A stretch of 64,000 bases of DNA from Candidatus Poribacteria bacterium (lineage in GTDB: Bacteria; Poribacteria; WGA-4E; WGA-3G): assembly GCA_965214095.1 (NCBI GenBank), contig OZ243938.1, positions 3,072,001-3,136,000 on the forward strand. The letters are read 5' to 3'. Below, piece by piece: positions 295-26,842 of this stretch (position 1 is its first letter; every line of letters starts with the position of its first letter). The notes beneath the pieces were generated by a model. The model did no database searches. It was not told the DNA's origin and was given only the letters and a program-made list of their open reading frames with translations. The translations under genes and the position numbers were made by a program.

Positions 295-2496
295 TCAATC
301 TTCAACTTCTATCTGTTCAACGATACATCCGTTCCATATCCAATGGATATGTCTCTTTGCAGTTTCAATCCGCTTTTTCGTTGTGTAAATCACGAGAGCA
401 ATATGTTCATTATTTACCTCTACAATGGCTTCTTTTTCAACCATTTTGTTGTTGGGAGGCACATAAAGTTTCTTTATAATTCGTTTGCCGTTTGCCAACA
501 TATTAACTTCATGTGTTGCTGCTTCTGCGGATTGAAAGATATTTGTTACCTTATATGTGCCATTCGGCAGGTCAATTCTGAAGGCTGCATCCTCTTTGCC
601 ATGCACAGAATCTCTTGTGAGTGGTGTCGTATTTTCTGGTGGTCCCAAATAAGCTGCACGAGGTGTGATTCGCCAGTTATCTTTATTTAACGGATCTCTC
701 GGATTCCACTCTGTATCCCATCCGTATTTGCCACTGATATACATAGTTTTCGGCGCGACAATATGATGATTCTCCTCTGCCTCTGCACTATCAGGCTGCA
801 TATCAAACCGTATTACCAGATTACCATCTTCTGTCTTGTTCCAAAGTTCAAGTTCAGGTTCAAGTGCTGATTTTCTTTTGAAAAGTTTCAGATGTTCTGT
901 TTGATGAATAATGTCATAGGTATCTTTGAGATCTGCAAACTCCTCTGTTTCTGGGTAGTTCCATGCAACAACATAATCAGCACGGATATAACTTAATCCT
1001 ACACTTTTTTGGTTGTTGCGATTTACCGGAAAATAGTCATAGTTTGCCTCATAGTTTGACATGTGAACGACATCATCAACATATACACCATAGAATGCTT
1101 GTGCATGGATATAGGGTGTGACATATTTGACTTCACCGAGTGCCTCAGATTTGTGTGCTTGTGCCACGCGTATAGCGTATGTGGTATGGGGTTCTATATA
1201 TTCTGTTCCTGAAACAAGTTCAGCAATTTCTGGTGATATCCGGGCATGGTCATAAGCCGTTCTGCCCCAATGAAGTAAAGCAAAAATAACAAGACAGGTT
1301 GTTATTGCATAACGTATGACTCCATGTCTATTCATAGATAGCAATGGTAGTAACTTCGGTCTCTCAGGATATAATTCCTTATCAGGTTGTGTTTCAAAAT
1401 CTGGAATAAGCAACCACGGTGCCACCATCAATAGAATATATATATGAATCCGATCATTAATCCACCCACCAGGTCCATAACCCCACGGTGCCTTCGCAAA
1501 CATATAAGTAAACAGTAATGCTATCAATAGAAACACATCTGTCTGTTTAATCCACTGTCTTCGGTATATCCTATAAATAATAGAAATTATAACGCCGATA
1601 CCTAAAATCACAAGCAATGAATAATTAACAGGAATATGCCAATCCGTAAAGTAAACAATTGACTTAACACCCCAAAAGTAATCCCAAATCCATTCCATAC
1701 CACGATGGCTTCCTGATTGATGCTGCTTAAGACTTTGCAGATAGTATTCCATCAAAACAAAATACATTGGTACCATATAAAGGAAGAAACCGAACAAAGG
1801 TTTGAGACTAACATTGAGACTAACAGTGAATTGTTTGCATGCTGTGAACCAATCTTTCTTCCGTTCCATCCATGCCTCAACCAAGGCGTTGATACCCCAT
1901 ATACATCCTGCTGCTACAGACATGCCTAACACTATTAATCCATAAGAAGCGATATGGGATAGATAAGTGAGTAACAACAATATGTATAAAATGCAGAGAT
2001 GTCTTACCTGTATATTTTCCTTGTGTTTCCACCAGAAACCGAAACTAAAAAAGAAAAAACTAATGCTCAGTGTAAAATTGTAGAATCCCATATAGAGAAG
2101 GTAGTTATATGCAAATGGAAAACCGATCCAAGCGTAAAGATACTTTGAATCCCGCTCTTTATGGACTGCACTGAGGAAATAGAAAAAGGCAATAGGGATT
2201 AATCCAACAGCAATTGTAAGGAATATTTTTTCGGACATCACAGGTGGAAAGATGTATAAGAGCGCAGCAAGGATTATATGTGACAACCAGTTCGGAAAGA
2301 TGGTAATGTTAAGTTTCCATGCATCACGTATTTTGTAGTTTTCATGTTGTCCATACTCTTTTAGTACAAGAGCATTGTAAACATGGCTCGGACCATCTTG
2401 AGATGGGAAATATGCAAAAATCCAAATCGGAAGGAGATGTAATATCAACAACACAACGAATAGGTGTTTCCAAGACAGGTTTCTCCAACTAAACAT
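295..2496 (-). CDS. Polytopic membrane protein, GT-C-like N-terminus with C-terminal beta-sandwich (carbohydrate-binding-like) domain
   Basis: 733 aa with many TM segments, DGPSH loop motif, MGFYNF; soluble C-terminus RFDMQP...KYGW...FRIDLPNGTYKVT. Confidence 0.6.
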   Translation of the reverse strand: MFSWRNLSWKHLFVVLLILHLLPIWIFAYFPSQDGPSHVYNALVLKEYGQHENYKIRDAWKLNITIFPNWLSHIILAALLYIFPPVMSEKIFLTIAVGLIPIAFFYFLSAVHKERDSKYLYAWIGFPFAYNYLLYMGFYNFTLSISFFFFSFGFWWKHKENIQVRHLCILYILLLLTYLSHIASYGLIVLGMSVAAGCIWGINALVEAWMERKKDWFTACKQFTVSLNVSLKPLFGFFLYMVPMYFVLMEYYLQSLKQHQSGSHRGMEWIWDYFWGVKSIVYFTDWHIPVNYSLLVILGIGVIISIIYRIYRRQWIKQTDVFLLIALLFTYMFAKAPWGYGPGGWINDRIHIYILLMVAPWLLIPDFETQPDKELYPERPKLLPLLSMNRHGVIRYAITTCLVIFALLHWGRTAYDHARISPEIAELVSGTEYIEPHTTYAIRVAQAHKSEALGEVKYVTPYIHAQAFYGVYVDDVVHMSNYEANYDYFPVNRNNQKSVGLSYIRADYVVAWNYPETEEFADLKDTYDIIHQTEHLKLFKRKSALEPELELWNKTEDGNLVIRFDMQPDSAEAEENHHIVAPKTMYISGKYGWDTEWNPRDPLNKDNWRITPRAAYLGPPENTTPLTRDSVHGKEDAAFRIDLPNGTYKVTNIFQSAEAATHEVNMLANGKRIIKKLYVPPNNKMVEKEAIVEVNNEHIALVIYTTKKRIETAKRHIHWIWNGCIVEQIEVED

Positions 2497-3343: not shown

Positions 3344-4564
3344 ATGCGTTTTGCTCGTTTCCTGACAACAACGACTGTTTTACTTTTACTTATTAGTTTT
3401 TATGTTTCATCCCCTTCCCACGGTTTTATTGAACGTGAGTTTACGATACGCGAAGTGCTTGATGCATGTACAAATATTGTGTTCGGAGAAGTCCAAGTTG
3501 CCAATGCTCGCAGGTTACAAGCTATCATTACTGTTAAAGAAGATGTAAAAGGCAAAAGTAATTTAAAAGAAATAAAAATGAATTTTGCTACAGGACAATA
3601 TAAACAGAACACTTCACCCCAAATAATGGCCCGTTTGCTAAAAGAGGGTATGCCAATAATTGTGTTCTATCGTGAACAATACGGTATTGATAGTATGTGT
3701 TTCATTGATAATACCTGGTTTCAGATGCGTAGTTATCAGGGCAGACGTAACAGGCTTGAAAGAAACAGTGGTGCATCTTGGTGGAGTTTCACACATATTG
3801 ACCCAATGATGAAACGCACGTATGATGGAAAGACAAAGGATTTTCAGAAAGTTGTTCGTGATATGTTAGCAGGTAAAATGTGGGTCACTGCCCCAAAAAA
3901 CGGGGTAAAAGTTCTCGTCTTAACTGGAAATAGCACCCCTACGACTTGGGGGCAATCTCATGTCCACACAAACACAATGACTTATGAATACAAGGCACTA
4001 CGCAATGTGAAGACGGCTGGAAAACGTCCAATGGCTTATGAATCTACAAAAATGCGTACGTTACCAAACCTAAAAGATGCAGATCTTTTATGGCTCGGAT
4101 ACGAAGAAATATCAAGCTACGGGAGACATCTTCTATCTACTGGGACAGAGAAAAAAATAAAAGACTTCGTCAAAAATGGCGGTATTGTCGTCGTTGCAGG
4201 ACAAGACAGTACAATGCGTAGACCTTGTGGAATCGGATGGTTGCAAGGTAATTTGAAAGGCGTTGAAAGTCCACCAGATAGACATTTTGTGATTATAGAC
4301 AATTCTGAACCCGTATTTTCCACCCCGCACAGAATCCGATCCGGCACACTGTTTATTGATGATGCATGGGTGGAATGGGAAGAAAACGATCAAGTATTTG
4401 CAACTACAAAAGAACGTAATGAACTTGTAGTCGGTGCACGAAAGTATGGAAAAGGGCTATATATCATTACAAGCCTTCGCAATGATACACAGTATACAGT
4501 TTCCAACAACAAACTGCTAATGGAAAACATCCTTCATTATGCTGTGAAGACGCTTAAGAAATGA
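3344..4564 (+). CDS. Secreted hypothetical protein; C-terminal half resembles a class I glutamine-amidotransferase-like fold
   Basis: 406 aa, signal peptide, GGAGG RBS, IKDFVKNGGIVVV and YGKGLYII patterns. Confidence 0.6.
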   Translation: MRFARFLTTTTVLLLLISFYVSSPSHGFIEREFTIREVLDACTNIVFGEVQVANARRLQAIITVKEDVKGKSNLKEIKMNFATGQYKQNTSPQIMARLLKEGMPIIVFYREQYGIDSMCFIDNTWFQMRSYQGRRNRLERNSGASWWSFTHIDPMMKRTYDGKTKDFQKVVRDMLAGKMWVTAPKNGVKVLVLTGNSTPTTWGQSHVHTNTMTYEYKALRNVKTAGKRPMAYESTKMRTLPNLKDADLLWLGYEEISSYGRHLLSTGTEKKIKDFVKNGGIVVVAGQDSTMRRPCGIGWLQGNLKGVESPPDRHFVIIDNSEPVFSTPHRIRSGTLFIDDAWVEWEENDQVFATTKERNELVVGARKYGKGLYIITSLRNDTQYTVSNNKLLMENILHYAVKTLKK

Positions 4565-5851: not shown

Positions 5852-6095
5852 AAACACAAATATCCTCGGCAATGTGCTTTATTGAGTATTATTTGAAAGA
5901 AATATTCAACTATCGGTTTTATTTAGCAATCGTGGTATTATATCCAACCTACCTGTATTTGTCAAACCTGTTTTTGCCTAAACTCATTAGACATATCTTG
6001 CACAATTGTTCATTGCATAGTATCATTATTTGAATAATGACTTAATGTGACAATTGCATGTTACCATCAATTCACACCAATACTGGAGCACATCT

Positions 6096-6707
6096 ATGAT
6101 CTCAGTCTACAAAATAAAACCTTGGTTTCAACAATTACTAAAACCGGTACTGACAACACTCCATAAAATCGGTTTCACGCCCAACGCTATCACTTGGATG
6201 GCAATACTATTGTCAGCAGTCATCGGTGTTCTATTATGGTTCTATCCTAATGGTGCTATGCTCTGGATATTTGCTGTCGCTTTATTAGTAAGAATGACGT
6301 TGAACGCACTTGATGGGATGATGGCGAAAATGTATAACATGACAAGCACTTCAGGTGAAATACTAAATGAACTTGGTGATGTCATATCCGATGCTGTCAT
6401 GTTTTTCCCGCTGATAAAACTTACTGGGGTCAACTTCTGGTGGGTGCTGTTGTTTATGTTCCTCTCTATGCTAAATGAATTCATCGGAGTCCTAACGAAA
6501 GCTGCGACAGGTACAAGAAGATACGACGGTCCAATGGGTAAGAGTGATAGAGCCTTAATATTGGGGATTACTTGTTTGCTGTTCTTCTTTTGGGAAAAGG
6601 TATCGTTAGCTTTCAATTACATTTTCATTGGAATGAGTATCCTGTTATTATTGAGTTCTGCAATTCGAATTAAAAATGGATTAAAACAAATCGGGAGTGC
6701 TGAATGA
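6096..6707 (+). CDS. CDP-alcohol phosphatidyltransferase family protein (YnbA-like)
   Basis: NALDGMMA...GEILNELGDVISD signature, RRYDGPMGKSDRA; ATG 6096 after GGAG. Confidence 0.9.
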   Translation: MISVYKIKPWFQQLLKPVLTTLHKIGFTPNAITWMAILLSAVIGVLLWFYPNGAMLWIFAVALLVRMTLNALDGMMAKMYNMTSTSGEILNELGDVISDAVMFFPLIKLTGVNFWWVLLFMFLSMLNEFIGVLTKAATGTRRYDGPMGKSDRALILGITCLLFFFWEKVSLAFNYIFIGMSILLLLSSAIRIKNGLKQIGSAE

Positions 6708-7660
6708 ATATACTAAATTTGCTTATAGTTCAACAAAAGGAAATTGCATTAGTTATCGGTTTGATTTTCGGAATTCTCGTTTTTGCATCCTTTCTTTTCT
6801 GGATTTTGGGAAAAGTAAAACCAAAAACCGACCTATCTGAATTAGTCATGAGAACCAAATCGTGGTGGGTAATGGCTATTATCTTTGTTTTGGCTATCAT
6901 TTTACATCCTGTTATCACCTTTATCTCTTTAGGGTTGTTGTCTTTTCTTGCGTTGCGAGAATTATCAACAATAAGCAAAAACGTCAGAGAATCAGATCGA
7001 AAGGTATTGATATGGTGCTTCTTGAGCATTCCATTCCAATATTATTTTGCATACATCGGACAATACAGCCTGTTTATCATCTTCATTCCTGTGTTTATGT
7101 ATCTATGGATCGCATTTATGCTGGTGATAATCGGTGAAACAGAGGATATTAGCCGTTCCATGAGTGTCCTACCTGCCCAATTGATGCTTACCGTTTTTGG
7201 TATCAGTCATCTGGCATTTCTGGTTTCATTGCCTGATATTGATGGCTTTGACGCAGGAGGTAGAGCTCTACTGTTGTTCATTGTTTTCATAACAGAAATG
7301 AACGATGTCTTCCAGTTCACATGGGGAAAGTTACTTGGAAGATTTAAGGTCATTCCAAAGGTCAGTCCGAATAAAACTTGGGAAGGATTGATAGGAGGCG
7401 TTATTACTTCGGTAATTGTTGGTTACTTTTTGCGTTTCTTAACACCATTCTCCGAAATTGAAATTTTGATCACTTGTGGCATAGTAGCAATTACCGGTTT
7501 TGTCGGTGATGTCGTTGTTTCTGCTATTAAGAGAGATATAGGTCTAAAAGATACAGGAGAAGCAATTCCCGGTCATGGTGGGATTTTAGACAGAATTGAT
7601 TCGCTTGCTGTCACGGGACCAGTGTTCTTTCATATTGTGTATAACCTATATTACCTCTGA
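6704..7660 (+). CDS. Phosphatidate cytidylyltransferase (CdsA/YnbB-like)
   Basis: SPNKTWEG, KRDIGLKDTG..IPGHGGILDRIDS; ATGA overlap with the upstream gene. Confidence 0.9.
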   Translation: MNILNLLIVQQKEIALVIGLIFGILVFASFLFWILGKVKPKTDLSELVMRTKSWWVMAIIFVLAIILHPVITFISLGLLSFLALRELSTISKNVRESDRKVLIWCFLSIPFQYYFAYIGQYSLFIIFIPVFMYLWIAFMLVIIGETEDISRSMSVLPAQLMLTVFGISHLAFLVSLPDIDGFDAGGRALLLFIVFITEMNDVFQFTWGKLLGRFKVIPKVSPNKTWEGLIGGVITSVIVGYFLRFLTPFSEIEILITCGIVAITGFVGDVVVSAIKRDIGLKDTGEAIPGHGGILDRIDSLAVTGPVFFHIVYNLYYL

Positions 7661-7702
7661 CATATTCCCACGCCTAAAGGTGGAGGGTTCTTTGTTCTTA
7701 CA
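7658..7702 (-). mobile_element. IS200/IS605-type end hairpin (single-hairpin, PATE-like remnant)
   Basis: Minus strand: GTTAA|TGTAAGAACAAAGAACCCTCCACC-TTTA-GGCGTGGGAATATGTCA, a subterminal hairpin ending in TGTCA. Confidence 0.5.
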
Positions 7703-7777
7703 TTAACGACTTGTGCTAGTTACGTAATAGTTTAGTTATTTTTCACAACTGTTCATATTTTAGTTGATACTTTCAGG

Positions 7778-7848
7778 AAATTGGTAATTTTTTCCGTACA
7801 CGAATCTTGTCTATGACTGGGTTTTTCCGATCAAAAAATTACCAATTT
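7778..7848. repeat. 16-bp perfect inverted repeat (MITE-like)
   Basis: AAATTGGTAATTTTTT (7778-7793) / AAAAAATTACCAATTT (7833-7848). Confidence 0.6.
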
Positions 7849-7860
7849 TACCAATTAGTA

Positions 7861-7942
7861 ATACCATTTCTAATAAAGAATAGTTTATTATGAGATTGTG
7901 AATTCAGACTAAGACAGAGAAAATCAATTTTAGAAATGGTAT
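7861..7942. repeat. 13-bp perfect inverted repeat (MITE-like)
   Basis: ATACCATTTCTAA (7861-7873) / TTAGAAATGGTAT (7930-7942). Confidence 0.55.
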
Positions 7943-7975
7943 AATTTGACAAGATATTGTAGTTCACAAATTAGG

Positions 7976-8073
7976 GGAGGGTACTAAAAAAGTGACCTTA
8001 TGTATATTTGGCTAAATTGCGTAGACATAGGCTTTACGGTATGTTTGCGTTTTTCAAAATTTTAGTACGCTGC
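7976..8073. repeat. Imperfect 14-bp inverted repeat (MITE-like)
   Basis: GGAGGGTACTAAAA versus the reverse complement of the right end, GCAGCGTACTAAAA (12/14 match). Confidence 0.4.
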
Positions 8074-8149
8074 TTATTGAGTAACAGCAGAATGGCTACA
8101 GAAATGTCTTACCTTGAATTTCAGTAATAATATCCTTGTTTTTTCTCTA

Positions 8150-8616
8150 ACTATAGTTTGGACAGTTTTTTGAGGATTTGAACAGTGCTCTGGACAAGGA
8201 GCATCACAGTCATCATATCTATTTCTTGAATGATACACCTATCGCCCCGCTGGGGCTTGCATTGGTCGGGGCACATTTTCTATACACCATAGGCGTCAAT
8301 TTAGCGTCCTTCCAAGTACCGGTAGGTTCGGTTTCCTAACCGAACCGGCTTTGTGCTAAATACCTTCATAGAGGTTCTCGCGTAGGATCCGGTTCGGTTA
8401 GGAAACCGAACCTACCGTCCTGGGGAAAACGCCTAATTTACACTAAATTGACGCCCATGGGGCACATTTTTCTATACACATTCCGCCCCGCTGGGGCTGC
8501 TCATTTTGATGTTTTCACACTTTTTCATCAAAGTATTATCCTATCCAAAACTCACAATATATTGCAAATGCCAGCAATATCAGTATGTAACCAAGAGAAA
8601 TTGTCCAAACTATAGT
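8150..8616. mobile_element. Nested MITE/REP composite
   Basis: Outer 15-bp TIR ACTATAGTTTGGACA (8150-8164/8602-8616); direct repeats CGCCCCGCTGGGGCT (8243, 8484) and GGGGCACATTTT(T)CTATACAC (8268, 8459); inner 17-bp TIR (8288-8304/8443-8459); central 29-bp perfect REP dimer (8320-8348/8389-8417). Confidence 0.75.
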
Positions 8617-8652
8617 AAAACTAAATAACCCTACTAAATAGTCTTGCAATTC

Positions 8653-8681
8653 TTGACTTTTAATCCCAAATATGTTAAACT
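8653..8681 (+). promoter_or_regulatory. Putative sigma70 promoter of the elbD-like operon
   Basis: TTGACT-17 nt-TAAACT with TG extension. Confidence 0.5.
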
Positions 8682-8776
8682 ACATTTACTTGAATGGAAC
8701 ACCTCAAATCCACACGCTATGTTAACAACAACACAATTCTGTTGACAGACAAAAATAAAAACGTCACAAGGATAAT

Positions 8777-11700
8777 ATGTCAATTACCGATTATTTTAAC
8801 GGAAAAGTCTTGCTGATTACGGGTGGTACCGCCTTCCTCGGGCAACCAATGGTTGCCAAAATCCTGACCTCTCTTCCAAATGTCAAAAAAATATATCTTC
8901 TCATTCGGAATCGGGTTGAGTCAAACGGCAAAATCACTTCCGCACAAACACGATTTGAAAAAGAGTTGTTGACCTCCGATGTTTTTGAAGAATTACGTCA
9001 GAAACACGGCACTCAATTTGAAGAATGGGTTAAGGAAAAGATCACTCCTGTTGAAGGTGAACTCACAGATGAAAGACTCGGTTTCAGCGATGCCGACTAT
9101 CAACGTCTACAAAATGAAGTTGACATCTTTATTAATATCGCAGGACTCGTTCAGTTTGATCCGCCATTTGATGCCTCACTAAAAGGTAATACCTTCGCCG
9201 CTAAACATGTTGTGACTTTCGCAAAAGGTTGCTCAAATGCGGTTTTTCTCCATGTTTCCACTGCGTATGTCTGCGGTGACAGAACGGGTCATGTGCCAGA
9301 AGAACTCCATCCACCTTATGAACAATACGCACAAGAACATAACGAAAAAAGTCCAACGAAAATCCCCGCAACCCTCACAGAAGAGATTGATTATCTACTC
9401 TCTTTAAACCAATCCATACGTGATGAAGCTGAATCCGCTGAACAAATAGCACATTTTCAAGAGATTGCTGAAAAGCAATTAAAAGCAGACAAACGTAAAA
9501 GTCGAAAAAACATTGATACCCTCACTGAAGAGGTTAAGGAAGAATGGCTTGAGGAACGTCTGGTGGAAGCGGGACTGGAACACGCGCGGTCACGCGGATG
9601 GAACGACACATATACCTACATGAAATTCCTCGCCGAAGAGGTAATCATGGAAATGCGTGGCGACCTACCGACAGCCATCGTTCGTCCTTCCATCATTGAA
9701 AGTAGTATCGCGGAACCGCATCCAGGGTGGCTCGGTAAATATCGGATGTCCGAACCGCTCATCGTCGGTTTTGCAAAAGGAAGACTCCCCGATTTTCCCG
9801 CAGACCCAGATATTATTTTAGATATTGTGCCTGTTGATTTCGTAGTGAATGCAATGTTAGCCGCAGCAGAAGCCATCGCAGAAAGCGGTGGAATTGAGGT
9901 ATACCACGTCGCTACCGGCACACAAAATCCGCTCTACTTCCGCGGAATTGTAGAAGCTACCTATGACTATTTTACTAAAAATCCTATGATAGAAAACGGG
10001 CAACCTATTCCTGTTCCAGTTTGGCAATATCCCACTTTAGAGGAATTCCAACGAAAATTAGACAGTAAAATGCGTCTGCTTGACCGCGCAATGAAAGCAC
10101 TAACACTACTCCCCTTCAAATCCGCAAAACGACAAAGACGCAGATTGTTCATAAAACAGAGCAGCATAAAAGCAGCACTTCACTATATTCGGATTTACGC
10201 ACCTTATACCCGCACGAACTTTGAATTTGAAACAAAAAAGATGCAAGCACTTTATCAACAACTTTCGCCTGAAGAACAGAAAATGTTTAATTTTGATGTG
10301 TCTCAAATTCAATGGAAACAATACTTCCAAGATATACACATTCCAGGCATCAAAAGACACGTGCTTAAAATTGATGAGGATACACCCAAACAGAAAGAAG
10401 AATCTACACAAGAGGAAGCAGACGATTATCCTGCTCCGGCACCAAATCCTATAGATAACATTTCACCAAGTACAATCGTAGATTTAATTGAGATGCAGGC
10501 GAAACGAGTCCCTGATAGAATTGCTCTCCAGATGGTAACCGAAGATGAATGGGAACGGTATACTTACGCTGAAACCTACTCACATTCACGTCAAGCAGCA
10601 TACCAATTATGGAAAAACGGTTTGCAAAAAGGGGACAGAGTTGTTTTGGTATCAGAAAACCAACCTGAGTGGTGTATCGCCTACCTTGCCGCTTCGCAAA
10701 TCGGGTGTGCAGTTGTTCCACTTGACGCACAAACACCGATAAGAGAGATATTAGCCATCGCGGAGTTCACTACCGCAAAAGCAGTCTTAGCATCAGATGC
10801 TGTTTTAGCCAAATCAAAAACACAACTGACTGAGACAGATATACTCATACAAAACATCAACAAGTTTAACGAAACTGCCAATTTAAAAGACGAGATTCCA
10901 TCAGACTTTCCTAACGTAGAAATTACACCAGACACAGTTGCTTCTATTATCTTTACGATGGGAACAACGGTAGACCCAAAAGGGGCTATGCTAACGCATG
11001 GTGGATTTATCTCTAATGTGAAAGCAGTTGCCAAAGCATTACCACCAACAGATGAAGAACGCATCTTGTCCGCTTTGCCACTGTATCATGCATTGAGTTT
11101 TTCATGTAGTTTATTGATGACTCTTTATGGTGGTACTACCGCAACCTATGTCAACGCACTGCGTCCGACTACTCTTTTGAAAGCCATGCGTGAGGATAAA
11201 ACCACTGCATTTATCAGTGTACCCCGACTCTTTCAAATGCTACAAAGCACTATTGAACGACAAGCATCGCGGGAAGACACACCGGGAGAAACCATTACCG
11301 AAAAAGCAAAAAATGTAATGGGTGGAGACATCCGAGTCCTTGTCAGCGGTGGTGCTGCCCTTGACGATGCTACTTATGATGGATTTCAAAAACTCGGTCT
11401 AACACTTTATCAAGGCTACGGTATGACCGAAACAGCACCGGTCCTTAGCGTCAATCCTTATCTGAATAGTAAACGTGGGTCTGTCGGTCCTCCAGTTGAA
11501 GGTGTTGAATTTCAAGTTTTGAATCCAGATAGTAATGGAGTTGGTGAAATCATCGCAAAAGGTCCCAGTAATATGATAGGATACTATCACAATCAAGATG
11601 CAACCGAAAAGGCTGTCCAAGACGGTTGGCTTTATACAGGTGATCTTGGATACATTGATGAGGATGGTTACCTATTTCTCACAGGACACTGTAAAGATGT

Positions 11701-13012
11701 AATCGTTCCTGCTTCCGGCAAGAACATCTATCCAGTTGAATTAGAAAAACTGTACCAAAACTGTCCAGTCATTGATGAGATGTGCGTCGTTGGCATTCCC
11801 TACGAAGATGGGTTAGATACTGATGTTCATGCAGTAATTATTACAACCGATGACAAAGACAATACGAAAACAGAGGTCCATCATCACTTGCAGAAAATCG
11901 CTAAACAACTGCCGAGTTACCAACATTTTCACAAAACACACCTTTTTCAATCTCCTCTGCCAAAAACCGAAAACGGAGAAATTGACAGGAAAAAGGTTAA
12001 AGTAGAGTTAGAGGAACATCTTGCAAAAGAACAGACTATTATCTCAAATGAAGCAGAACAAGAATCTGAAAATATTCCAGAGGATATTTTAGCACCACTG
12101 GCAGGATTAGCACGGATGCCAGCAAATCAGATTCGTGGAGAAAACCGTTTGGATACCGATCTTGGACTCGATTCACTCACGCGCCTTGACTTGCTGATGC
12201 TCCTCGAATCCAGACTCGGTCAGACAATACCTGAAGCAATAGTTGCGAACTTGCAGACAGTCAACGATGTTGTTGAATTAACACAGACTTTTGCAGAAAC
12301 AGATGTAAATCAATCATCTGGAATATCAGAAAAACCTTTGAAATTGCGGGAAAAACCACATTGGTATGCACGTGCATTTCGTGCAGGTGTACGAAGTTTT
12401 TACAGACACCGTTTTTCATTTGAATGTTTCGGACTTGAAAACATACCACAAGACAAACCTTACATCATCACACCGAACCACGCAAGCCATTTAGATACGC
12501 TTACGGTGATTACAGCACTTGGTCAATATTCACACCGTATGTGGACGCTTGCCGCACGCGATTACTGGTTCGGTAACCGCTTTCAAGGATGGTTTGCACA
12601 CAATTGTCTCAACGCACTGCCTATTGAGCGCGACGGCAATTTTAGTCAGTTTCTACAAGATTTACGTATGGCAAATGCAGTTATGGAGCAAAACAATGGA
12701 TTGCTCATTTTCCCTGAAGGCACACGGTCGGTTGATGGAGAACTACAACCTTTCAAACCGGGTGTTCTCAGTCTACTAATTTATGGAGAACAGGTACCGA
12801 TAATACCGGCATACATTAAAGGCACATATCAAGCACTGCCAAAAGGACAAAACTTACCAAAAAAACATCCGATTCAGATCGCTTTTGGAGAACCACTTCT
12901 ATTTGAAGGCACACAAAACACAGACAACATCACGGAAAATTCGGAAATATACCAGAAATTTCTGACTGAACTTGAAACCCGTGTTGCTGAACTCAAACAA
13001 AAATTATCTTAG
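8777..13012 (+). CDS. Multidomain fatty acyl reductase / AMP-binding / ACP / PlsC acyltransferase (ElbD-like lipid biosynthesis enzyme)
   Basis: FAR: TGGTAFLG, HVSTAYV, YTYMK, IVRPSII, DIVPVD; AMP-binding: QGYGMTET, GWLYTGDLG; ACP: LGLDSL; acyltransferase: NHASHLD, FPEGTRS. Confidence 0.9.
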   Translation: MSITDYFNGKVLLITGGTAFLGQPMVAKILTSLPNVKKIYLLIRNRVESNGKITSAQTRFEKELLTSDVFEELRQKHGTQFEEWVKEKITPVEGELTDERLGFSDADYQRLQNEVDIFINIAGLVQFDPPFDASLKGNTFAAKHVVTFAKGCSNAVFLHVSTAYVCGDRTGHVPEELHPPYEQYAQEHNEKSPTKIPATLTEEIDYLLSLNQSIRDEAESAEQIAHFQEIAEKQLKADKRKSRKNIDTLTEEVKEEWLEERLVEAGLEHARSRGWNDTYTYMKFLAEEVIMEMRGDLPTAIVRPSIIESSIAEPHPGWLGKYRMSEPLIVGFAKGRLPDFPADPDIILDIVPVDFVVNAMLAAAEAIAESGGIEVYHVATGTQNPLYFRGIVEATYDYFTKNPMIENGQPIPVPVWQYPTLEEFQRKLDSKMRLLDRAMKALTLLPFKSAKRQRRRLFIKQSSIKAALHYIRIYAPYTRTNFEFETKKMQALYQQLSPEEQKMFNFDVSQIQWKQYFQDIHIPGIKRHVLKIDEDTPKQKEESTQEEADDYPAPAPNPIDNISPSTIVDLIEMQAKRVPDRIALQMVTEDEWERYTYAETYSHSRQAAYQLWKNGLQKGDRVVLVSENQPEWCIAYLAASQIGCAVVPLDAQTPIREILAIAEFTTAKAVLASDAVLAKSKTQLTETDILIQNINKFNETANLKDEIPSDFPNVEITPDTVASIIFTMGTTVDPKGAMLTHGGFISNVKAVAKALPPTDEERILSALPLYHALSFSCSLLMTLYGGTTATYVNALRPTTLLKAMREDKTTAFISVPRLFQMLQSTIERQASREDTPGETITEKAKNVMGGDIRVLVSGGAALDDATYDGFQKLGLTLYQGYGMTETAPVLSVNPYLNSKRGSVGPPVEGVEFQVLNPDSNGVGEIIAKGPSNMIGYYHNQDATEKAVQDGWLYTGDLGYIDEDGYLFLTGHCKDVIVPASGKNIYPVELEKLYQNCPVIDEMCVVGIPYEDGLDTDVHAVIITTDDKDNTKTEVHHHLQKIAKQLPSYQHFHKTHLFQSPLPKTENGEIDRKKVKVELEEHLAKEQTIISNEAEQESENIPEDILAPLAGLARMPANQIRGENRLDTDLGLDSLTRLDLLMLLESRLGQTIPEAIVANLQTVNDVVELTQTFAETDVNQSSGISEKPLKLREKPHWYARAFRAGVRSFYRHRFSFECFGLENIPQDKPYIITPNHASHLDTLTVITALGQYSHRMWTLAARDYWFGNRFQGWFAHNCLNALPIERDGNFSQFLQDLRMANAVMEQNNGLLIFPEGTRSVDGELQPFKPGVLSLLIYGEQVPIIPAYIKGTYQALPKGQNLPKKHPIQIAFGEPLLFEGTQNTDNITENSEIYQKFLTELETRVAELKQKLS

Positions 13013-13020
13013 GAATTAAA

Positions 13021-13707
13021 TTGGAATCGCTTCAGAAAAATACAATCGCTTTCTTTGATGTAGACGGCACTTTGGTAAGCACAACTATTGTGCATTGTTA
13101 CGTCTGGCTTCGGACTTCATCGTTTTCTCGAATACAGAAACTATTCTGGACTATCGGTTTCTTACCAAAGGTCATCTACTATCTGATTTTAGATCGGATT
13201 AGTAGACCGCAGTTTAATCGGGTATTCTATAGAAATTATCGTGGAATGAACGCGGATACGTTAAAAACTTCAGCATCTGATATGTTCGAAAATTATCTGA
13301 AACACAAAATATATCCTGAAGCTATTACACAAATACAAGAACACAAAGAGCAAGGACACCAAGTTGTGCTTTTGACCGGTTCACTTGACTTCATTGTCAG
13401 TCCTATCGCTGAGTTTTTCGGTGCAGATTCAATATTAGCTCCTGAACTCATGGAGTTCGGAGGGAAGTTCACTGGTGAACTCACAACTGAACCGCTCATC
13501 GGAGAACAAAAGGCAATAGCGATGAAGAAGTTTAGTGAACAAACACAGATTCCACTTGATATATGCTATGCTTATAGTGACAGTCAATCTGATCTACCGA
13601 TGTTAAATGCAGTAGGCAAACCTGTCGCAGTCAATCCGAGCAAAGGCCTTCGCAAACAGGCACTTGAAGCAAACTGGGAAATCCACGAATGGATGAAGGC
13701 ATCTTGA
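13021..13707 (+). CDS. HAD-IB family hydrolase (SerB-like phosphatase)
   Basis: FFDVDGTL, LLTGS, AYSDSQSDLPML..VGKPVAVNP; 8 nt downstream of the megaenzyme stop. Confidence 0.9.
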   Translation: MESLQKNTIAFFDVDGTLVSTTIVHCYVWLRTSSFSRIQKLFWTIGFLPKVIYYLILDRISRPQFNRVFYRNYRGMNADTLKTSASDMFENYLKHKIYPEAITQIQEHKEQGHQVVLLTGSLDFIVSPIAEFFGADSILAPELMEFGGKFTGELTTEPLIGEQKAIAMKKFSEQTQIPLDICYAYSDSQSDLPMLNAVGKPVAVNPSKGLRKQALEANWEIHEWMKAS

Positions 13708-13942: not shown

Positions 13943-14007
13943 TTATCTACTCCATCTTATAAAATTATCCTAGGCGACCACCAACAAAGAACTTTATGGA
14001 GAAGACT

Positions 14008-14787
14008 ATGAACACCCTATATGACTTTAAAATAAAACAAAAAAAATATATACCAGTCTTTCCAAAGGCAACTGGAAAGCCGACTATTTACATAGAAGGG
14101 TATCCCTATGAGGACGATGAACCTATGGCAGCAACAGGATTTCACGCTGATCAGATCACTACGTTTTCTGATCAACTTTCACGCTATTTCGCGATTAATG
14201 AACACATATATATCGGGGTTGACAATTTCATCTACTATAAGGAAGGTGACATGTCAAAAGTAGTTGCACCTGATATTTATGTTGTGTTTGGTGTAGATAA
14301 ATACCCACAACGGCGTAGTTTTTACACGTGGTCAGAAGGTGCAGTACCGATAGTAGTCTTTGAGTTTCTTTCCGATGCGACTGCAGATAAAGATCGGCAC
14401 GAAAAAGTACAAGTGTATTTGCAAGATATGAGTGCTCAAGAATACTTTATCCATCAACCTGAGATGGAAAAACCTGCGGAGTTCCAAGGATGGCAGCGGA
14501 TGCCTTCGGGAGATATCGTAGAGATAGAACCAGATACAGAAGGTGGACTGTTTAGCGAAGCATTGAACCTTTGGTTCCGTTGGGAAGATAATCAGAATAC
14601 GCAGGTGAGACTCATGCGTCCGTATCTCCCCGATGGCACACCTATAATGACATCTATGGAAGAAAAGCACATGCGGGAAGAAGCACAACACCTTCATGAG
14701 GCAGCGGAAGCGAAGGTAAGTGAATTAGAAACTGAGATAGAACGGTTACGCGCACAAATCGCAAACACAAAATACGAAAGTGCATGA
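14008..14787 (+). CDS. Uma2 (DUF820) family PD-(D/E)XK endonuclease-like protein with C-terminal coiled coil
   Basis: EPMA..H, VAPDIYVVFGV, PIVVFEFLSDATADKD..EK..Y, EYF; alternative start 13996. Confidence 0.85.
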   Translation: MNTLYDFKIKQKKYIPVFPKATGKPTIYIEGYPYEDDEPMAATGFHADQITTFSDQLSRYFAINEHIYIGVDNFIYYKEGDMSKVVAPDIYVVFGVDKYPQRRSFYTWSEGAVPIVVFEFLSDATADKDRHEKVQVYLQDMSAQEYFIHQPEMEKPAEFQGWQRMPSGDIVEIEPDTEGGLFSEALNLWFRWEDNQNTQVRLMRPYLPDGTPIMTSMEEKHMREEAQHLHEAAEAKVSELETEIERLRAQIANTKYESA

Positions 14788-20995: not shown

Positions 20996-23900
20996 TTACT
21001 TCAACACCAATATCTTACCAACTTTTTGCACACGATCATCACCTTTGGTAGCAGTGAATTTGTAGATATAGACACCGTTCGCAAGTGGATCACCTTCTGC
21101 ATCTAAACCTTCAAAATGATATTCGTTATAGGAGATTGATGCATCAAGCGTATCAATCGTCGTGATTAGTTTACCAGTCAGTGTGTAAATCTTGAGCGTG
21201 ACTTTATCTGCACCACCCGTGAGATAGTAAGCAAAGTTAGTTCCCTTACCAATGCCTTTGCCAGGACGGAACGGATTAGGGAAGTTTGCGATGTTTTTTA
21301 TCTCAAATCCACCAGCAACTTTCGCGTTTAGACCACTATCCTCTACATTTCCATTTGCATCCTGTGCCTGCAGTCTTATACGGTATTCACCAGCATCCAA
21401 TGCATTTATAGGTGAATAGGTAATGAATAGGACGTTGCTACTCAATGGAGAAGCGGAGACTGTGTATTCATCCTGTGGGACACGATCACCGTTCTTGGTG
21501 AGAATGATATTATCCTGACGTGGATCAATGCCGTTTGCATCCTCAATTTTAGCAGAAAAAGTAGGCGTATCAGAAATGTAGTCACCATCAATGAATCCTT
21601 GATTGTCAACGCTTATCTCTAAGGTCGGTGGTTGTGAATCTGTGTGAGATAGCAAGGCAAATGTCCCTGGTAGTTTCACCTCAGCAGATATAGTATCTTC
21701 TGTCTCTGTTTGCTCTCCAACGCGAATCCAGTTCTCTGTCTCATCGTCTTGCATGTATATGTACAAGGTTTCTTCAGCAGTTTTCACAAACGACGCTGTT
21801 GCAACTAATTCTGATTGCTCGCTCAATTTTAGACGATAGGCAACAGGTGTTGTCTCAGTATCCAATGTGGGAGCAGAAACTATATCAGGTTGGTTTTTGA
21901 TGGTCAACGTTTCCGTTTCAAATGTCATTGCCCCGTGGGTTTCAAGGCTACCGGGAGGAATTGTGATGCTAAGCTTCCCATCTAAACTCTGTATTGGCTT
22001 GTCAATACTATCAGAATCAAAGAAAATATGTGAACTTTCAATTTCCCGTGATGCAATATTATTGTTCGTATTATATTCAGGAAAAATACCATCCGGTTTT
22101 TCTGTCGTTGGCATATCAACAAACACAGCTACAATATATTTACCAGGGTCAGGTCGCCACGGCACACTTGCCACAACAGTTCTATTGGGTGGTAATTCAG
22201 GCAGCAAATACACATCACCGATTGGAGTCGCATTCTGTAACATCTCAAGTGTGACCTCTTGTGTCTCTGCACCATCAGTTACTGGAATTTGAAAGAAACT
22301 TACAGGAACATCTTTGGCAGAAAGGGAATCCCGATTACTTATATGTGCCGAAAGATGAAATGGGGAATTGGTATCCCAATCAAGAGTGTGTTCTAAAACG
22401 GTCAAATCTCCTAATCCAACACTATATGTGGCTGTCTCTGTCTGAAGTATACGTCCATCATTTGGTTTGACATATATATAATAATCAATTTGCTCCCCTG
22501 ATTCTTGTCCAGAGATAGGTTGTTCAGTTCTATAGGTTTTCCCTGCCTGTTTAATCATAGGAATTGCTTCAGCTTCATCTCGGCGGGATTCTATTAGGAA
22601 CGGACTCCAATAGAGTGTAATTTCGTCAATTTCACTTTCATTGGCTACTTCTGCGTAAATATGAACAGGTTGATCCGGTAATACAGGATACGGCTCAAGG
22701 CGAACGTCTTTAATATAGTGATCTACAGGATTAGACGATAAATGACCAATTACATCTTTCTCGTTATTCCATGCATAAGTTCGCAGATGCCATGAATCAT
22801 AAGCACTGTTATATGGTAGTTGGATTTCTGCTTCAAATTTACCATCTACAACTTGCACTGTTGCCATGCGTGGTTCAACATCCATACCCAATCGATTCGT
22901 TGTGGATTCAGAACGGAACCATGTTCGGACTCTTTTGCCCTCTCTGTTTAGCGGATTTGGCAGCACTGTTACCTCTGCGTTTCCACTGAAATTCGGATCA
23001 GGTATTGTGCCAGCAACTGTCAACAAGGTTCCTGCATCAAAAACATCTCTATGTAAGATTTCCTCTGTTTCTGTTTTGATCTGCATCTCTGTATGCGGCA
23101 ATCTTAATTTTGTAGCAGGATCACCAAACAATGTAAACACTTCTGTCAGATCAGGGTAACCCGGTAGATTTATCAAAAAACGTGTCTTTGCTTCTGCCAG
23201 GATGGCACCAATATGTAACATTTTGTCATGGAAAATCACATCTAAAATCTCTTTATTCAGGACGTGATCTTGGTATAATAACCCGATGCTTGTTCCACCG
23301 ATCACACCAATAGCACCACCACTATCCGAACGGAGAAATTCCTCAGCAAGACATCCTGTTTTACTATCAAATTCCCCTGTAAAACAGGTCATACTAATGA
23401 CAAAAGGCAATTGTGATATATTCGTTAAGTTTTTCTGCGGGTCCTCCAAATCCATCATACGACTTGATGCCCACCTACCGCCAGCACCATGCCCAACATA
23501 ATTGACAAGACTTGCCCCACTGTTAAAACCATCAATTACTTGTCTCCCAACTGGTGTGCTACCTTCACCTAATAACTGGTCATCTCCGACGGAAGGGGCT
23601 GCATATATTAATTGGGTTTCATATTTTTCGGTGAGTCTATTTTCTTCAATAAGCGAATCTGTTTGGATGTGAAAATCCTCATCTGAACCCGCAAGCATGA
23701 GTATACGTTTATGCCAAGGTCCAATTTCGTCTGTACTCTCATATTTTATTGCACGTTCAACGAATATCCGTGTATCCACGCTATTTGTTGCTGGAACACG
23801 TCCAATGAACATTTCGGGGAAAAAATCGTTGCCGCGAAATGTAACGAACTGGTGATCACTTGAAGATGAACCATAACCAGGGACTTGTATCTGAATCGTA

Positions 23901-26254: not shown

Positions 26255-26842
26255 TTATTTATTTGTTACGAGATGATAGACTTGAATCTCACGGACTTGT
26301 GCGATTGAAGGTCGCACCACTCTATAATGTGGAAGGTATTGGTCAAACATTGTCTGTCGTTGGTCTACAATTTTGTCACCAGGGTCAGGTTCAAGTTTAT
26401 TTACGACAATATCGTCTACAGTCCGGGTCACGGCAATACGAATCATCTTTGTGTTGAAGTTCAACCTATCAAAAACATACATTCCCTGTGCAGCTTTACC
26501 TTGAAGGTTGCGTCGTTGTATAACAGAACTGAAAGTCTCCCATTCATCGACTTCTGGCTTCAGGTATTCCATTTTAAAACGGAATAGGTTTTCGTTGTGA
26601 ACGATAATTTTGCGTACTGGCTTCACGTCAGCAAATCGGATGATGAAGTAACGTTCATTTGTTGCAGGAATGGTAGCAATCGTTTCAAGATTTCCATCGT
26701 TCAACCCAGGATGGTTTGCTTCAGTGCCGTAATTGGCTTGTGCGATATTTTCACTGTACTGCGTAGATAATACTGCAGCGAGTCGGCATGCATTAAGACT
26801 GAAACAGAGAAAGAAAAGAAAAATAATTGTTAGACATCTCAT
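26255..26842 (-). CDS. Putative lipoprotein with discoidin/galactose-binding-like fold
   Basis: Lipobox-like LNAC; LNDGNLET, IRIAVT, VREIQVY pattern; ATGA overlap with the upstream BMC-P gene. Confidence 0.6.
   Translation of the reverse strand: MRCLTIIFLFFLCFSLNACRLAAVLSTQYSENIAQANYGTEANHPGLNDGNLETIATIPATNERYFIIRFADVKPVRKIIVHNENLFRFKMEYLKPEVDEWETFSSVIQRRNLQGKAAQGMYVFDRLNFNTKMIRIAVTRTVDDIVVNKLEPDPGDKIVDQRQTMFDQYLPHYRVVRPSIAQVREIQVYHLVTNK

Follow-up and report, generated by a model that had tools for sequence, protein, structure and literature searches.

The stretch analysed here, a window of 64,000 nucleotides from a Candidatus Poribacteria bacterium (contig OZ243938.1 of assembly GCA_965214095.1, positions 3,072,001–3,136,000; all coordinates below are positions within this window), carries an elbD-type gene that can be read as a single uninterrupted open reading frame (ORF) without stops. 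Its product combines in one chain, and in the order typical of ElbD, a FAR domain, an adenylation (A) domain of the ANL family, an acyl carrier protein (ACP) and a PlsC-type acyltransferase (AT), all of them recognized by Pfam (Table 1). ElbD belongs to elbABCDE, the ether-lipid operon of Myxococcus xanthus (Lorenzen et al. 2014, via PMC9131029 and PMC13012113), and the acyl-CoA synthetase (ACS) and ACP activities of M. xanthus ElbD have been confirmed in vitro (PMC9131029); this lineage is the only one that has been biochemically tested. Like it, the poribacterial protein has the same four domains in the same order, shows end-to-end homology (31% identity over 1484 alignment columns, E = 0, in BLASTP against P0384, the orthologue from Myxococcus stipitatus) and is encoded next to an elbB-like HAD gene; architecture, full-length homology and the HAD neighbour together place it in the ElbD family. 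The protein also matches the NCBIfam model PRK08633 (Aas-type acyl-ACP synthetase/acyltransferase). Its nearest homologues contain the same six Pfam families and are 69–95% identical in the A-domain region, those with a name being Candidatus Poribacteria; one of them, L042, whose record bears the title Poribacteria, shares 90% identity with it over the whole protein.

An earlier reading of this DNA, made from the letters alone (hereafter the sequence-only reading), proposed that the A domain has lost three canonical catalytic motifs. All the motifs that it quoted, namely A3, A8, A10, GYGMTET, TGDLG, DSL, HxxxxD, YxxxK and GGTAFLG, are indeed present in the form given. In a phmmer comparison with solved structures, the altered stretches align with SSGTTGLPKG, DRLKELI and PKSPSGKILRK of the 4-coumarate:CoA ligase (4CL) 5bsm (E 2.8e-49), so the canonical Ser, Gly, Arg and Lys correspond here to Met728, Val732, His971 and Glu1068, respectively. 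A review of the family (PMC10510592) gives the consensus sequences of four adenylation-defining motifs. The A3 consensus, (S/T)(S/T)G(S/T)TGxPK, which binds the nucleotide phosphates, is replaced in the poribacterial protein by T-M-G-T-T-V-D-P-K. The A7 consensus, (S/T)GD, by which the ribose hydroxyls are bound, is found as TGD (aa 954–956), also in 121/121 homologue rows. The A8 consensus, Rx(D/K)xxxxxxG, which forms the hinge, is broken by His971 in place of Arg, though Lys973 and Gly981 are present, and its spacing is one residue longer than in 4CL in all ElbD homologues, Myxococcus included. The A10 consensus, PxxxxGK, whose Lys is critical for the adenylation step, is replaced by P-K-T-E-N-G-E. 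Judged by its sequence, the domain belongs to the ANL fold family but departs from three of the four motifs, and the substitutions fall on residues to which the same review assigns roles in binding the phosphates (A3), as the hinge (A8) and in the adenylation step (A10 Lys). To call the three motifs lost is nevertheless an overstatement: the key residues are replaced, but Thr727, Gly729, Thr730, Lys735 and Gly736 of A3 are still present, as are Lys973 and Gly981 of A8.

Canonical relatives outside the variant clade described below (n = 115) have Ser728 in 114 cases, Gly732 in 99, Arg971 in 115 and Lys1068 in 113. The genome encodes three more full-length ANL enzymes, and all of them (3/3) have canonical A3, A8 and A10 motifs. 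The deviation is thus well beyond what chance would give. As in the M. xanthus lineage, the ACP Ser, the HxxxxD motif of the acyltransferase and the YxxxK motif of FAR (YTYMK in the translation) are intact. The glycine motif of FAR, in contrast, reads TGGTAFLG versus the usual TGxxGxxG, with the middle Gly displaced by two positions (GATG to GGTA), although the catalytic YxxxK is present.

Table 1. Position of the elbD-type gene, its domains and motifs, and other features of the window
Feature	Amino acids	Window position	Strand	Remarks
elbD-type gene	1-1411	8777-13012	+	1411 aa
FAR (NAD_binding_4)	14-360	8816-9856	+	Pfam E 1.3e-62
FAR Rossmann motif GGTAFLG	16-22	8822-8842	+	altered
Sterile	464-531		+	Pfam
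ANL N-terminal core (AMP-binding)	572-937	10490-11587	+	Pfam E 4.8e-78
A3 phosphate loop FTMGTTVDPKG	726-736	10952-10984	+	Ser to Met at 728, Gly to Val at 732, acidic residue at 733
A5 GYGMTET	880-886	11414-11434	+	intact
A7 TGDLG	954-958	11636-11650	+	intact
A8 hinge GHCKD	970-974	11684-11698	+	Arg to His at 971; hinge Lys973 intact
A8-loop Gly	981	11717-11719	+	intact
ANL C-terminal subdomain (AMP-binding_C)	988-1067	11738-11977	+	Pfam E 1.5e-6
A10 loop PKTENGEIDR	1062-1071	11960-11989	+	Glu1068 at the catalytic Lys position; Asp1070 where Lys-bearing relatives have Lys
ACP (PP-binding)	1108-1167	12098-12277	+	Pfam; Ser1133 within DSL
ACP motif DSL	1132-1134	12170-12178	+	intact
PlsC-type acyltransferase (AT)	1216-1348	12422-12820	+	Pfam PF01553 Acyltransferase, E 4.8e-22
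Acyltransferase motif NHASHLD	1234-1240		+	HxxxxD intact
Acyltransferase motif FPEGTRS	1312-1318		+	EGTR block intact
elbB-like HAD-IB hydrolase		13021-13707	+	PF12710 E 1.6e-36; TIGR01490; 9 bases downstream of elbD
CDP-alcohol phosphatidyltransferase and cdsA		6054-7660		between cNMP-binding/SpoIIE gene and elbD
Spacer		7661-8776		1.1 kb, upstream of elbD
Uma2-family putative endonuclease		13996-14787	+	between elbB-like HAD gene and metG
C25 peptidase		20996-26221	-	1741 aa
ORF		295-2496	-	733 aa
ORF		3344-4564	+	406 aa
ORF		26255-26842	-	195 aa

Conservation and phyletic spread of the altered motifs

The altered residues are highly conserved in the nearest set, which consists of the query and its 120 nearest homologues (n = 121). 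Met728, Val732 and an acidic residue, Asp or Glu, at position 733 are found in 121/121 sequences, His971 in 119 (the other two have Leu) and Cys972 in 117. Lys1068 is present in only 4/121, and its column holds 11 different residue types. Among the retained residues, Thr884 and Glu885 of A5, Asp956 of A7, the hinge Lys973 and Gly981 of the A8 loop are each seen in 121/121, and the ACP Ser1133 in 120, the remaining row having a gap there. The altered TAFLG of the FAR motif occurs in all 106 of the nearest homologues that carry a FAR domain.

Pairwise dN/dS ratios were calculated by the Nei–Gojobori method for 13 Poribacteria genes, using the 16 pairs with dS of 1.5 or less; at a median dS of ~1.2 these values are rough. 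They amount to 0.071 for FAR, 0.067 for the ANL core, 0.077 for the ANL C-terminal subdomain, 0.051 for the ACP and 0.042 for the AT and, although rough, they exclude relaxed selection. Relative to FAR and AT, the amino-acid divergence of the ANL core is 1.0-fold in Poribacteria and 1.09-fold in Myxococcota; the corresponding figures for the C-terminal subdomain, which bears A10, are 1.46-fold in Poribacteria, 1.17 in Acidobacteriota and 0.98 in Myxococcota. Going by the alignment, the motif substitutions are features of a clade under purifying selection and not private decay. Homologue alignment and dN/dS were the checks to which the sequence-only reading had pointed, and the outcome that it considered fatal, substitutions private to this genome and under relaxed selection, is rejected by both.

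A wider search against representatives of 50% identity clusters, with the A-ACP-AT part as query, returned 150 relatives. Among these representative rows and the query, the A10 Lys is present in 125/151, lost in 21 and replaced by a gap in five; nearly all of the rows without Lys belong to those closest to the query. The A8 Arg is absent only from the query and one fragment. The nearest relatives without FAR in this search are A-ACP-acyltransferase proteins of ~870 aa, which, together with the Aas-type enzymes, follow the same logic of an ANL domain, a carrier and a PlsC-type acyltransferase as the protein studied here. The FAR-less rows are mostly canonical at A10 (Lys in 84/94, another residue in eight and a gap in two), Lys being lost only near the query.

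All 11 orthologues labelled as Myxococcota are canonical, with FTSGTTG-x-PKG, GR-x-KD and PRT-x-(T/S)-(R/K)-KVKR at A3, A8 and A10. They come from Myxococcus sp., M. stipitatus, Corallococcus, Hyalangium, Archangium (two species), Melittangium and four metagenome-assembled genomes labelled Myxococcaceae, Anaeromyxobacteraceae or Myxococcales; M. xanthus itself is not among the 120 rows listed, and its ElbD is represented by those of its congeners. In these orthologues the motifs read, for example, FTSGTTGTPKG, GRxKD and PRTSTRKVKR; in the poribacterial protein, the key positions are taken by Met, Val, His and Glu. Other phyla show different combinations of these changes. In Planctomycetota, 9/11 rows have FTSGTT-(V/L)-x-PK-(G/A) at A3, with the A8 Arg and the A10 Lys present. 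In Acidobacteriota and Gemmatimonadota, A3 is mostly FTTGTAVDP-(K/R)-G, the A8 Arg is present and the A10 Lys is mostly lost; 120 further homologues from these two phyla, known under names of metagenome-assembled genomes only, have Lys in 13/120, Gly732 in 0/120 and Arg971 in 120/120, with A5, A7, the A8 Gly and the ACP Ser conserved in 119–120/120. All five loci from Latescibacterota (L065, L067, L069, L070 and L076) combine an A3 loop that is two residues shorter, FTS-x-x-EPRG, with a canonical A8 Arg and the absence of the A10 Lys. In Poribacteria, 14/15 loci have FTMGTTV and GHCKD, and 13 of these 14 have lost the A10 Lys, which is present in L057. The fifteenth locus, L078, has Met728, yet retains Arg971 and the canonical FAR motif, which takes the form GATGFLG or GATGFVG in this locus as well as in Myxococcota and other phyla. 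Because L078 combines Met728 with Arg971 and a canonical FAR motif, the order of the changes suggested by these sequences is Ser to Met first and then Arg to His together with the change in FAR.

The same nesting of the changes is seen in phylogenetic trees. In a FastTree tree of 215 A domains, built after removal of the three motif windows, a clade of 100 rows (support 99) has a residue other than Gly at position 732 in 99 of them; within it, a clade of 77 rows (support 97) has a residue other than Lys at position 1068 in 65; and in the innermost clade of 25 rows (support 100) position 971 is occupied by a residue other than Arg in all 25. An IQ-TREE 'quick' run with 53 rows yielded the same nesting, with SH-aLRT values of 100 for core Poribacteria, 99 for the canonical clade, and more moderate values of 94 and 89 for the backbone. 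As far as the sequences tell, then, the loss of the motifs is stepwise: the Lys column varies freely in the wider clade, and only core Poribacteria add the replacement of Arg by His. The sequence-only reading presented the changes as a loss in this enzyme; they reach further than that. By their distribution, only Ser728 to Met, Arg971 to His and GATG to GGTA in FAR are specific to Poribacteria; the loss of the A10 Lys and the A3 Gly is peculiar neither to this enzyme nor to its phylum, being common to a clade comprising Acidobacteriota, Gemmatimonadota, Latescibacterota and Poribacteria.

Within the 77-row clade, the entropy of the Lys column is 3.2 bits, versus 0.14 in the 115 canonical rows, and the flanking Pro1062 and Arg1071 stand at 0.1 bit. 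Several new constraints are seen in this clade, namely Val732 in 61/77 rows, an acidic residue at 733 in 72/77 and Asp1070 in 61/77. Gly880, Tyr881, Gly882 and Glu885, Thr or Ser at 884, Gly955 and Asp956, as well as Gly970, Gly981, Asn983 and Pro986, are each found in 77/77 rows, and Lys973 in 76/77. Compared with their Lys-bearing relatives, core Poribacteria have turned both lysines of the A10 loop into acidic residues (K1068E and K1070D).

Possible functions of the adenylation domain

In ANL enzymes, the C-terminal subdomain rotates by ~140 degrees: its Lys face is used for adenylate formation, and a second face, which provides the pantetheine tunnel and the carrier interface, serves thioester formation and carrier-protein binding (PMC10510592). 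Since the residues of the Lys face have been released in the variant clade and those of the second face and the AMP pocket are invariant, we infer that half-reaction 1 is unselected and half-reaction 2 is maintained. Canonical ATP-dependent adenylation appears to be no longer selected and has probably been lost, and we lean, with slightly more confidence than doubt, towards the view that the domain has been retained after this loss as an ACP-facing module. According to this proposal, the sub-clade of Acidobacteriota, Gemmatimonadota, Latescibacterota and Poribacteria would have given up selection on half-reaction 1 (fatty acid + ATP -> acyl-AMP + PPi), with the Gly-/Ser-rich phosphate loop remodelled to FT-x-GT-x-V-(D/E)-P-K-G, and would have kept the residues needed for half-reaction 2: the adenosine/ribose pocket (Thr and Glu of A5, Asp of A7), the hinge Lys, the Gly of the A8 loop and the ACP Ser. 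The domain, in its thioester-forming conformation, would load, exchange or hold acyl chains on the built-in ACP; the FAR and acyltransferase domains would then use these thioester substrates. Acyl-CoA could be supplied by two of the genome's stand-alone canonical ANL enzymes, which are encoded by genes of the fatty-acid CoA ligase type (A3, A8 and A10 canonical), and the genome also encodes one AcpS-type phosphopantetheinyl transferase. A narrower version of the proposal, that in all four phyla the domain is a half-ANL, either an ATP-independent exchanger of acyl thioesters, taking acyl groups from acyl-CoA to the built-in ACP by way of AMP or acyl-AMP bound to the enzyme, or a holding station for acyl-ACP, is tentative and, in our estimate, rather doubtful. 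The sequence-only reading had named both an ATP-independent acyl transfer to the ACP and the ether-forming step as possible new roles. The retained A5, A7, hinge Lys, A8 Gly and ACP Ser appear to fit acyl transfer, or another role on the ACP side, better than ether formation, and our analysis found no evidence for an ether-forming role of the A domain.

The closest precedent is the first A domain of PyrG, the nonribosomal peptide synthetase of pyridomycin, which has lost its A3 residues and the catalytic Lys, as seen here. When the PyrG domains were produced singly and as a tandem, the second proved to be the activating one, with isoleucine as its substrate, and the review cites PyrG as an example of a tandem with a nonfunctional member (PMC10510592). 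However, PyrG has an active A domain in cis, whereas the protein described here has none. The ElbD-type gene is single-copy in 21/21 Poribacteria genomes searched (13 from the same genus and eight from the same order), the other hits being stand-alone ANL proteins of 522–555 aa with ~30% identity. With one ElbD-type gene per genome, the variant has no canonical paralogue as a back-up. A further difference from PyrG is that the variant is conserved across several phyla under purifying selection.

Proteins of the FARAT type, such as M. xanthus MXAN_1675 and the eukaryotic FARAT (PMC13012113), were retrieved as relatives of the same query and, like ElbD, combine FAR with a PlsC-type acyltransferase in one chain. 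They have neither ANL nor ACP, in contrast to the protein studied here, in which both are present and highly conserved. FAR-acyltransferase fusions of 774–839 aa without the A-ACP module were found at five loci (L006, L031, L064, L028 and L059, in records of Dehalococcoidia and of Wenzhouxiangella/Ectothiorhodospiraceae, the latter gammaproteobacterial), and FAR-HAD fusions of 755 aa at two (L035 and L047, in records of Rubrobacteraceae). The existence of relatives that dispense with A-ACP implies that the cell's own thioester pool can feed FAR and the acyltransferase.

An AlphaFold2 model of the A-ACP part (aa 560–1175, built from a 54-row alignment; pLDDT 88.3, ~90 in the ANL core, and pTM 0.85) predicts a well-formed ANL fold, and a structure search with this model gave Z scores of 44–49 to ANL structures. 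It superposes on 3cw9, a structure titled 'thioester-forming conformation', over 485 residues with a root-mean-square deviation (rmsd) of 2.9, compared with 462 residues and 8.9 for 3cw8, another structure of the same enzyme. With 5bsr, which contains AMP and CoA, it superposes over 491 residues (rmsd 2.8), and it also superposes over the full length on 4g37 ('second catalytic conformation'); the TM-score to LgrA 5es8 ('thiolation state'), normalised to the query, is 0.76. The fit to adenylate-state or ATP-bound structures is poor, both for 3cw8 and for 5bsm, 2d1q and 4fut (rmsd ~11 for the last three).

Several observations speak against an ACP-facing module that no longer adenylates. The loss of activity is deduced from residues alone, and many of the relevant residues (Thr727, Gly729, Thr730, Lys or Arg735 and Gly736 of A3, Thr884 and Glu885 of A5) are retained; such a pattern of ATP- and Mg-related residues in A3 and A5 would be expected of a still-adenylating enzyme too. 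The ACP needs to be loaded, and the scans of neighbouring genes described below revealed no alternative loader beside elbD. The modelled thioester-forming state, which may not be specific to the variant, lends weak support to the module. Monophyly of the Lys-free group is moderately supported (SH-aLRT 89, maximum likelihood). On the tree, Gly732 gave way to another residue 12 times, some of them in proteins with the Lys, and an independent-pairs test gave no sign of coupling between the losses of the A3 Gly and the A10 Lys (8 to 12 pairs, median p = 1), so a change of the A3 Gly alone is no marker of inactivity. Finally, taken in its entirety, the A domain has changed little more than FAR and AT have: replaced conserved sites number 24/110 in the ANL core and 7/33 in its C-terminal subdomain, compared with 12/76 in FAR and 6/36 in AT. 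In the motif windows, 5/17 conserved sites are replaced, versus 5/70 elsewhere (Fisher p = 0.022), a comparison of little weight because the windows were picked after the motifs were known.

A rival possibility is that the domain still adenylates fatty acids with ATP in a non-canonical manner, with another basic residue such as Lys735, Lys1063 or Arg1071, or a metal held by the new acidic residues, replacing the catalytic Lys; in that case, the remodelling of the loops would point to a different preference for substrate or nucleotide. Besides the retained residues of A3 and A5 just listed, such an activity would fit the strong purifying selection on the entire domain, the conserved rather than random nature of the new residues (Val732, Asp or Glu733, Asp1070), the invariant ACP Ser with no other loader nearby and the sole ElbD copy in 21/21 genomes. 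We nevertheless regard it as somewhat unlikely, because no position of the loop varies more than the Lys column (11 residue types in 121 sequences) and the candidate substitutes, Lys735, Lys or Arg1063 and Arg1071, occur equally in canonical enzymes and hence represent no compensatory gain. Moreover, the phosphate loop is two residues shorter in Latescibacterota, the charge of both A10-loop lysines is reversed in the protein studied here, and PyrG displays the same two losses in its non-activating domain (PMC10510592).

A non-catalytic scaffold, that is, a pseudoenzyme that positions FAR, ACP and AT or binds the acyl chain with no loading of the ACP through the domain, is improbable. Natural FAR-AT and FAR-HAD fusions do dispense with A-ACP altogether, and the relatively faster evolution of the C-terminal subdomain would be in line with a structural role, but Thr and Glu of A5 and Asp of A7 are invariant (77/77 and 121/121) and have no obvious function in a scaffold. 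The same invariance is seen in the A8 Gly, the hinge Lys and the ACP Ser, and in its dN/dS the ANL core is no higher than FAR. That the deviations stem from decay, from a pseudogene or from a sequencing artefact confined to this assembly has a negligible probability and was rejected, given the intact 1411-aa frame, the presence of the motifs in 119–121/121 homologues from many contigs and a dN/dS of ~0.07, along with a near-identical copy in run X1 (possibly from the same source DNA) and 92–95% identical alleles in contigs from two RNA libraries. The latter contigs, from metatranscriptome libraries of one study, match over the gene including the A domain; they are no proof of transcription, as DNA carry-over is possible. 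No elbD match was found in run X23.

Previous papers on elbD of sponge symbionts interpret the differences among A domains as substrate specificity (PMC9426513; preprint 10.64898/2026.06.23.733905). The preprint reports poor scores from specificity-prediction tools, and the class predictions in Table S5 of PMC9426513 are of low probability (0.48 and 0.54). The words 'motif', 'inactive' and 'nonfunctional' are absent from the accessible text of the preprint, and the literature searched, to which neither Lorenzen et al. 2014 nor the preprint supplement belonged, contained no paper noting the loss of motifs in ElbD. Homology to ElbD is widely used to infer ether-lipid capacity, for instance in sponge symbionts, Acidobacteria and metagenome-assembled genomes from the Black Sea. 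Pontiella is mentioned in PMC11868695 as positive for ElbD and negative for ether lipids. A large, multi-phylum part of the family, however, is without the adenylation-defining residues that the only tested lineage has, and the mechanism of M. xanthus is therefore not simply transferable to those phyla. Activation of free fatty acids by its own A domain may not belong to the conserved core of ElbD-dependent ether-lipid synthesis, which narrows down the question of how ElbD forms these lipids. For enzymology, the variant provides an ANL domain from nature, under strong conservation, whose half-reactions are apparently uncoupled. If the half-ANL reading is true, the variant enzymes would draw on the acyl-CoA pool and not on free fatty acids, and ANL domains would have a further function, hitherto undescribed, that is conserved across several phyla.

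Genomic surroundings of elbD

The neighbours of elbD in the window include cdsA, a CDP-alcohol transferase gene, the HAD gene, a Uma2 gene and metG. Unlike in the elb operon of M. xanthus, neither a LarA-like elbC nor elbE (NAD-dependent epimerase family) is found beside the gene. Gene-cluster families with just elbD and elbB have been described in sponge symbionts (preprint 10.64898/2026.06.23.733905). Six Lar_N (LarA-like) genes are located elsewhere in the genome, one of them at G000:C1:538819-539427. One Lar_N gene has a frame of 519 aa, which makes it about as long as the elbC-like genes found downstream of elbD in Acidobacteriota and Planctomycetota, but it is not linked to elbD in this genome.

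In Poribacteria, the constant neighbours of elbD are a divergent cNMP-binding/SpoIIE gene and the HAD gene. An ORF of 226–242 aa is located directly downstream of elbD in 6/6 related loci, and all four of those scanned proved to be HAD. The poribacterial neighbours scanned encode cNMP-binding/SpoIIE, HAD and TPR proteins, an aminotransferase and ORFs without a Pfam family, with no adenylating gene among them. Similarly, no ANL was detected among 12 ORFs (501–658 aa) downstream of elbD that were scanned in loci of Acidobacteriota, Planctomycetota, Gemmatimonadota and Latescibacterota; these comprise six Lar_N, three Oxidored_FMN and one zinc-dependent alcohol dehydrogenase, plus two ORFs without a Pfam family. 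A gene for Oxidored_FMN, a protein similar to old yellow enzyme, follows elbD in both Latescibacterota loci scanned (L065 and L069).

The region between the cNMP-binding/SpoIIE gene and elbD contains two genes in the window, for a CDP-alcohol phosphatidyltransferase, with weak archaetidylinositol/PIP-synthase-like NCBIfam hits, and for CdsA. In five related Poribacteria loci, elbD lies ~150–350 bases from the cNMP-binding/SpoIIE regulator, without this pair, and a DNA search found the pair in one same-genus genome only, with 78% identity. The pair looks like a lineage-specific insertion of phospholipid head-group genes beside elbD. The 1.1-kb spacer that separates it from elbD has no ORF of at least 60 aa and is composed of short dispersed repeats, which recur at 75–99% identity at many sites of the genome (38 matches in G000) and in other genomes of the same genus. 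Several of these repeats match both strands of one place, which gives them the look of miniature inverted-repeat transposable elements (MITE) or repetitive extragenic palindromes (REP). An Rfam scan of the window yielded 0 matches.

In the six related loci, the position of the Uma2 gene either has no ORF of at least 130 aa (L042 and L057) or carries different genes. Farther from elbD, the window encodes a large protein with Propeptide_C25, Peptidase_C25 (gingipain-type) and a C-terminal FlgD Ig-like domain, and three ORFs that match no Pfam family at E <= 1e-6, the longest of which (733 aa) has the look, from its sequence, of a multi-pass membrane protein.

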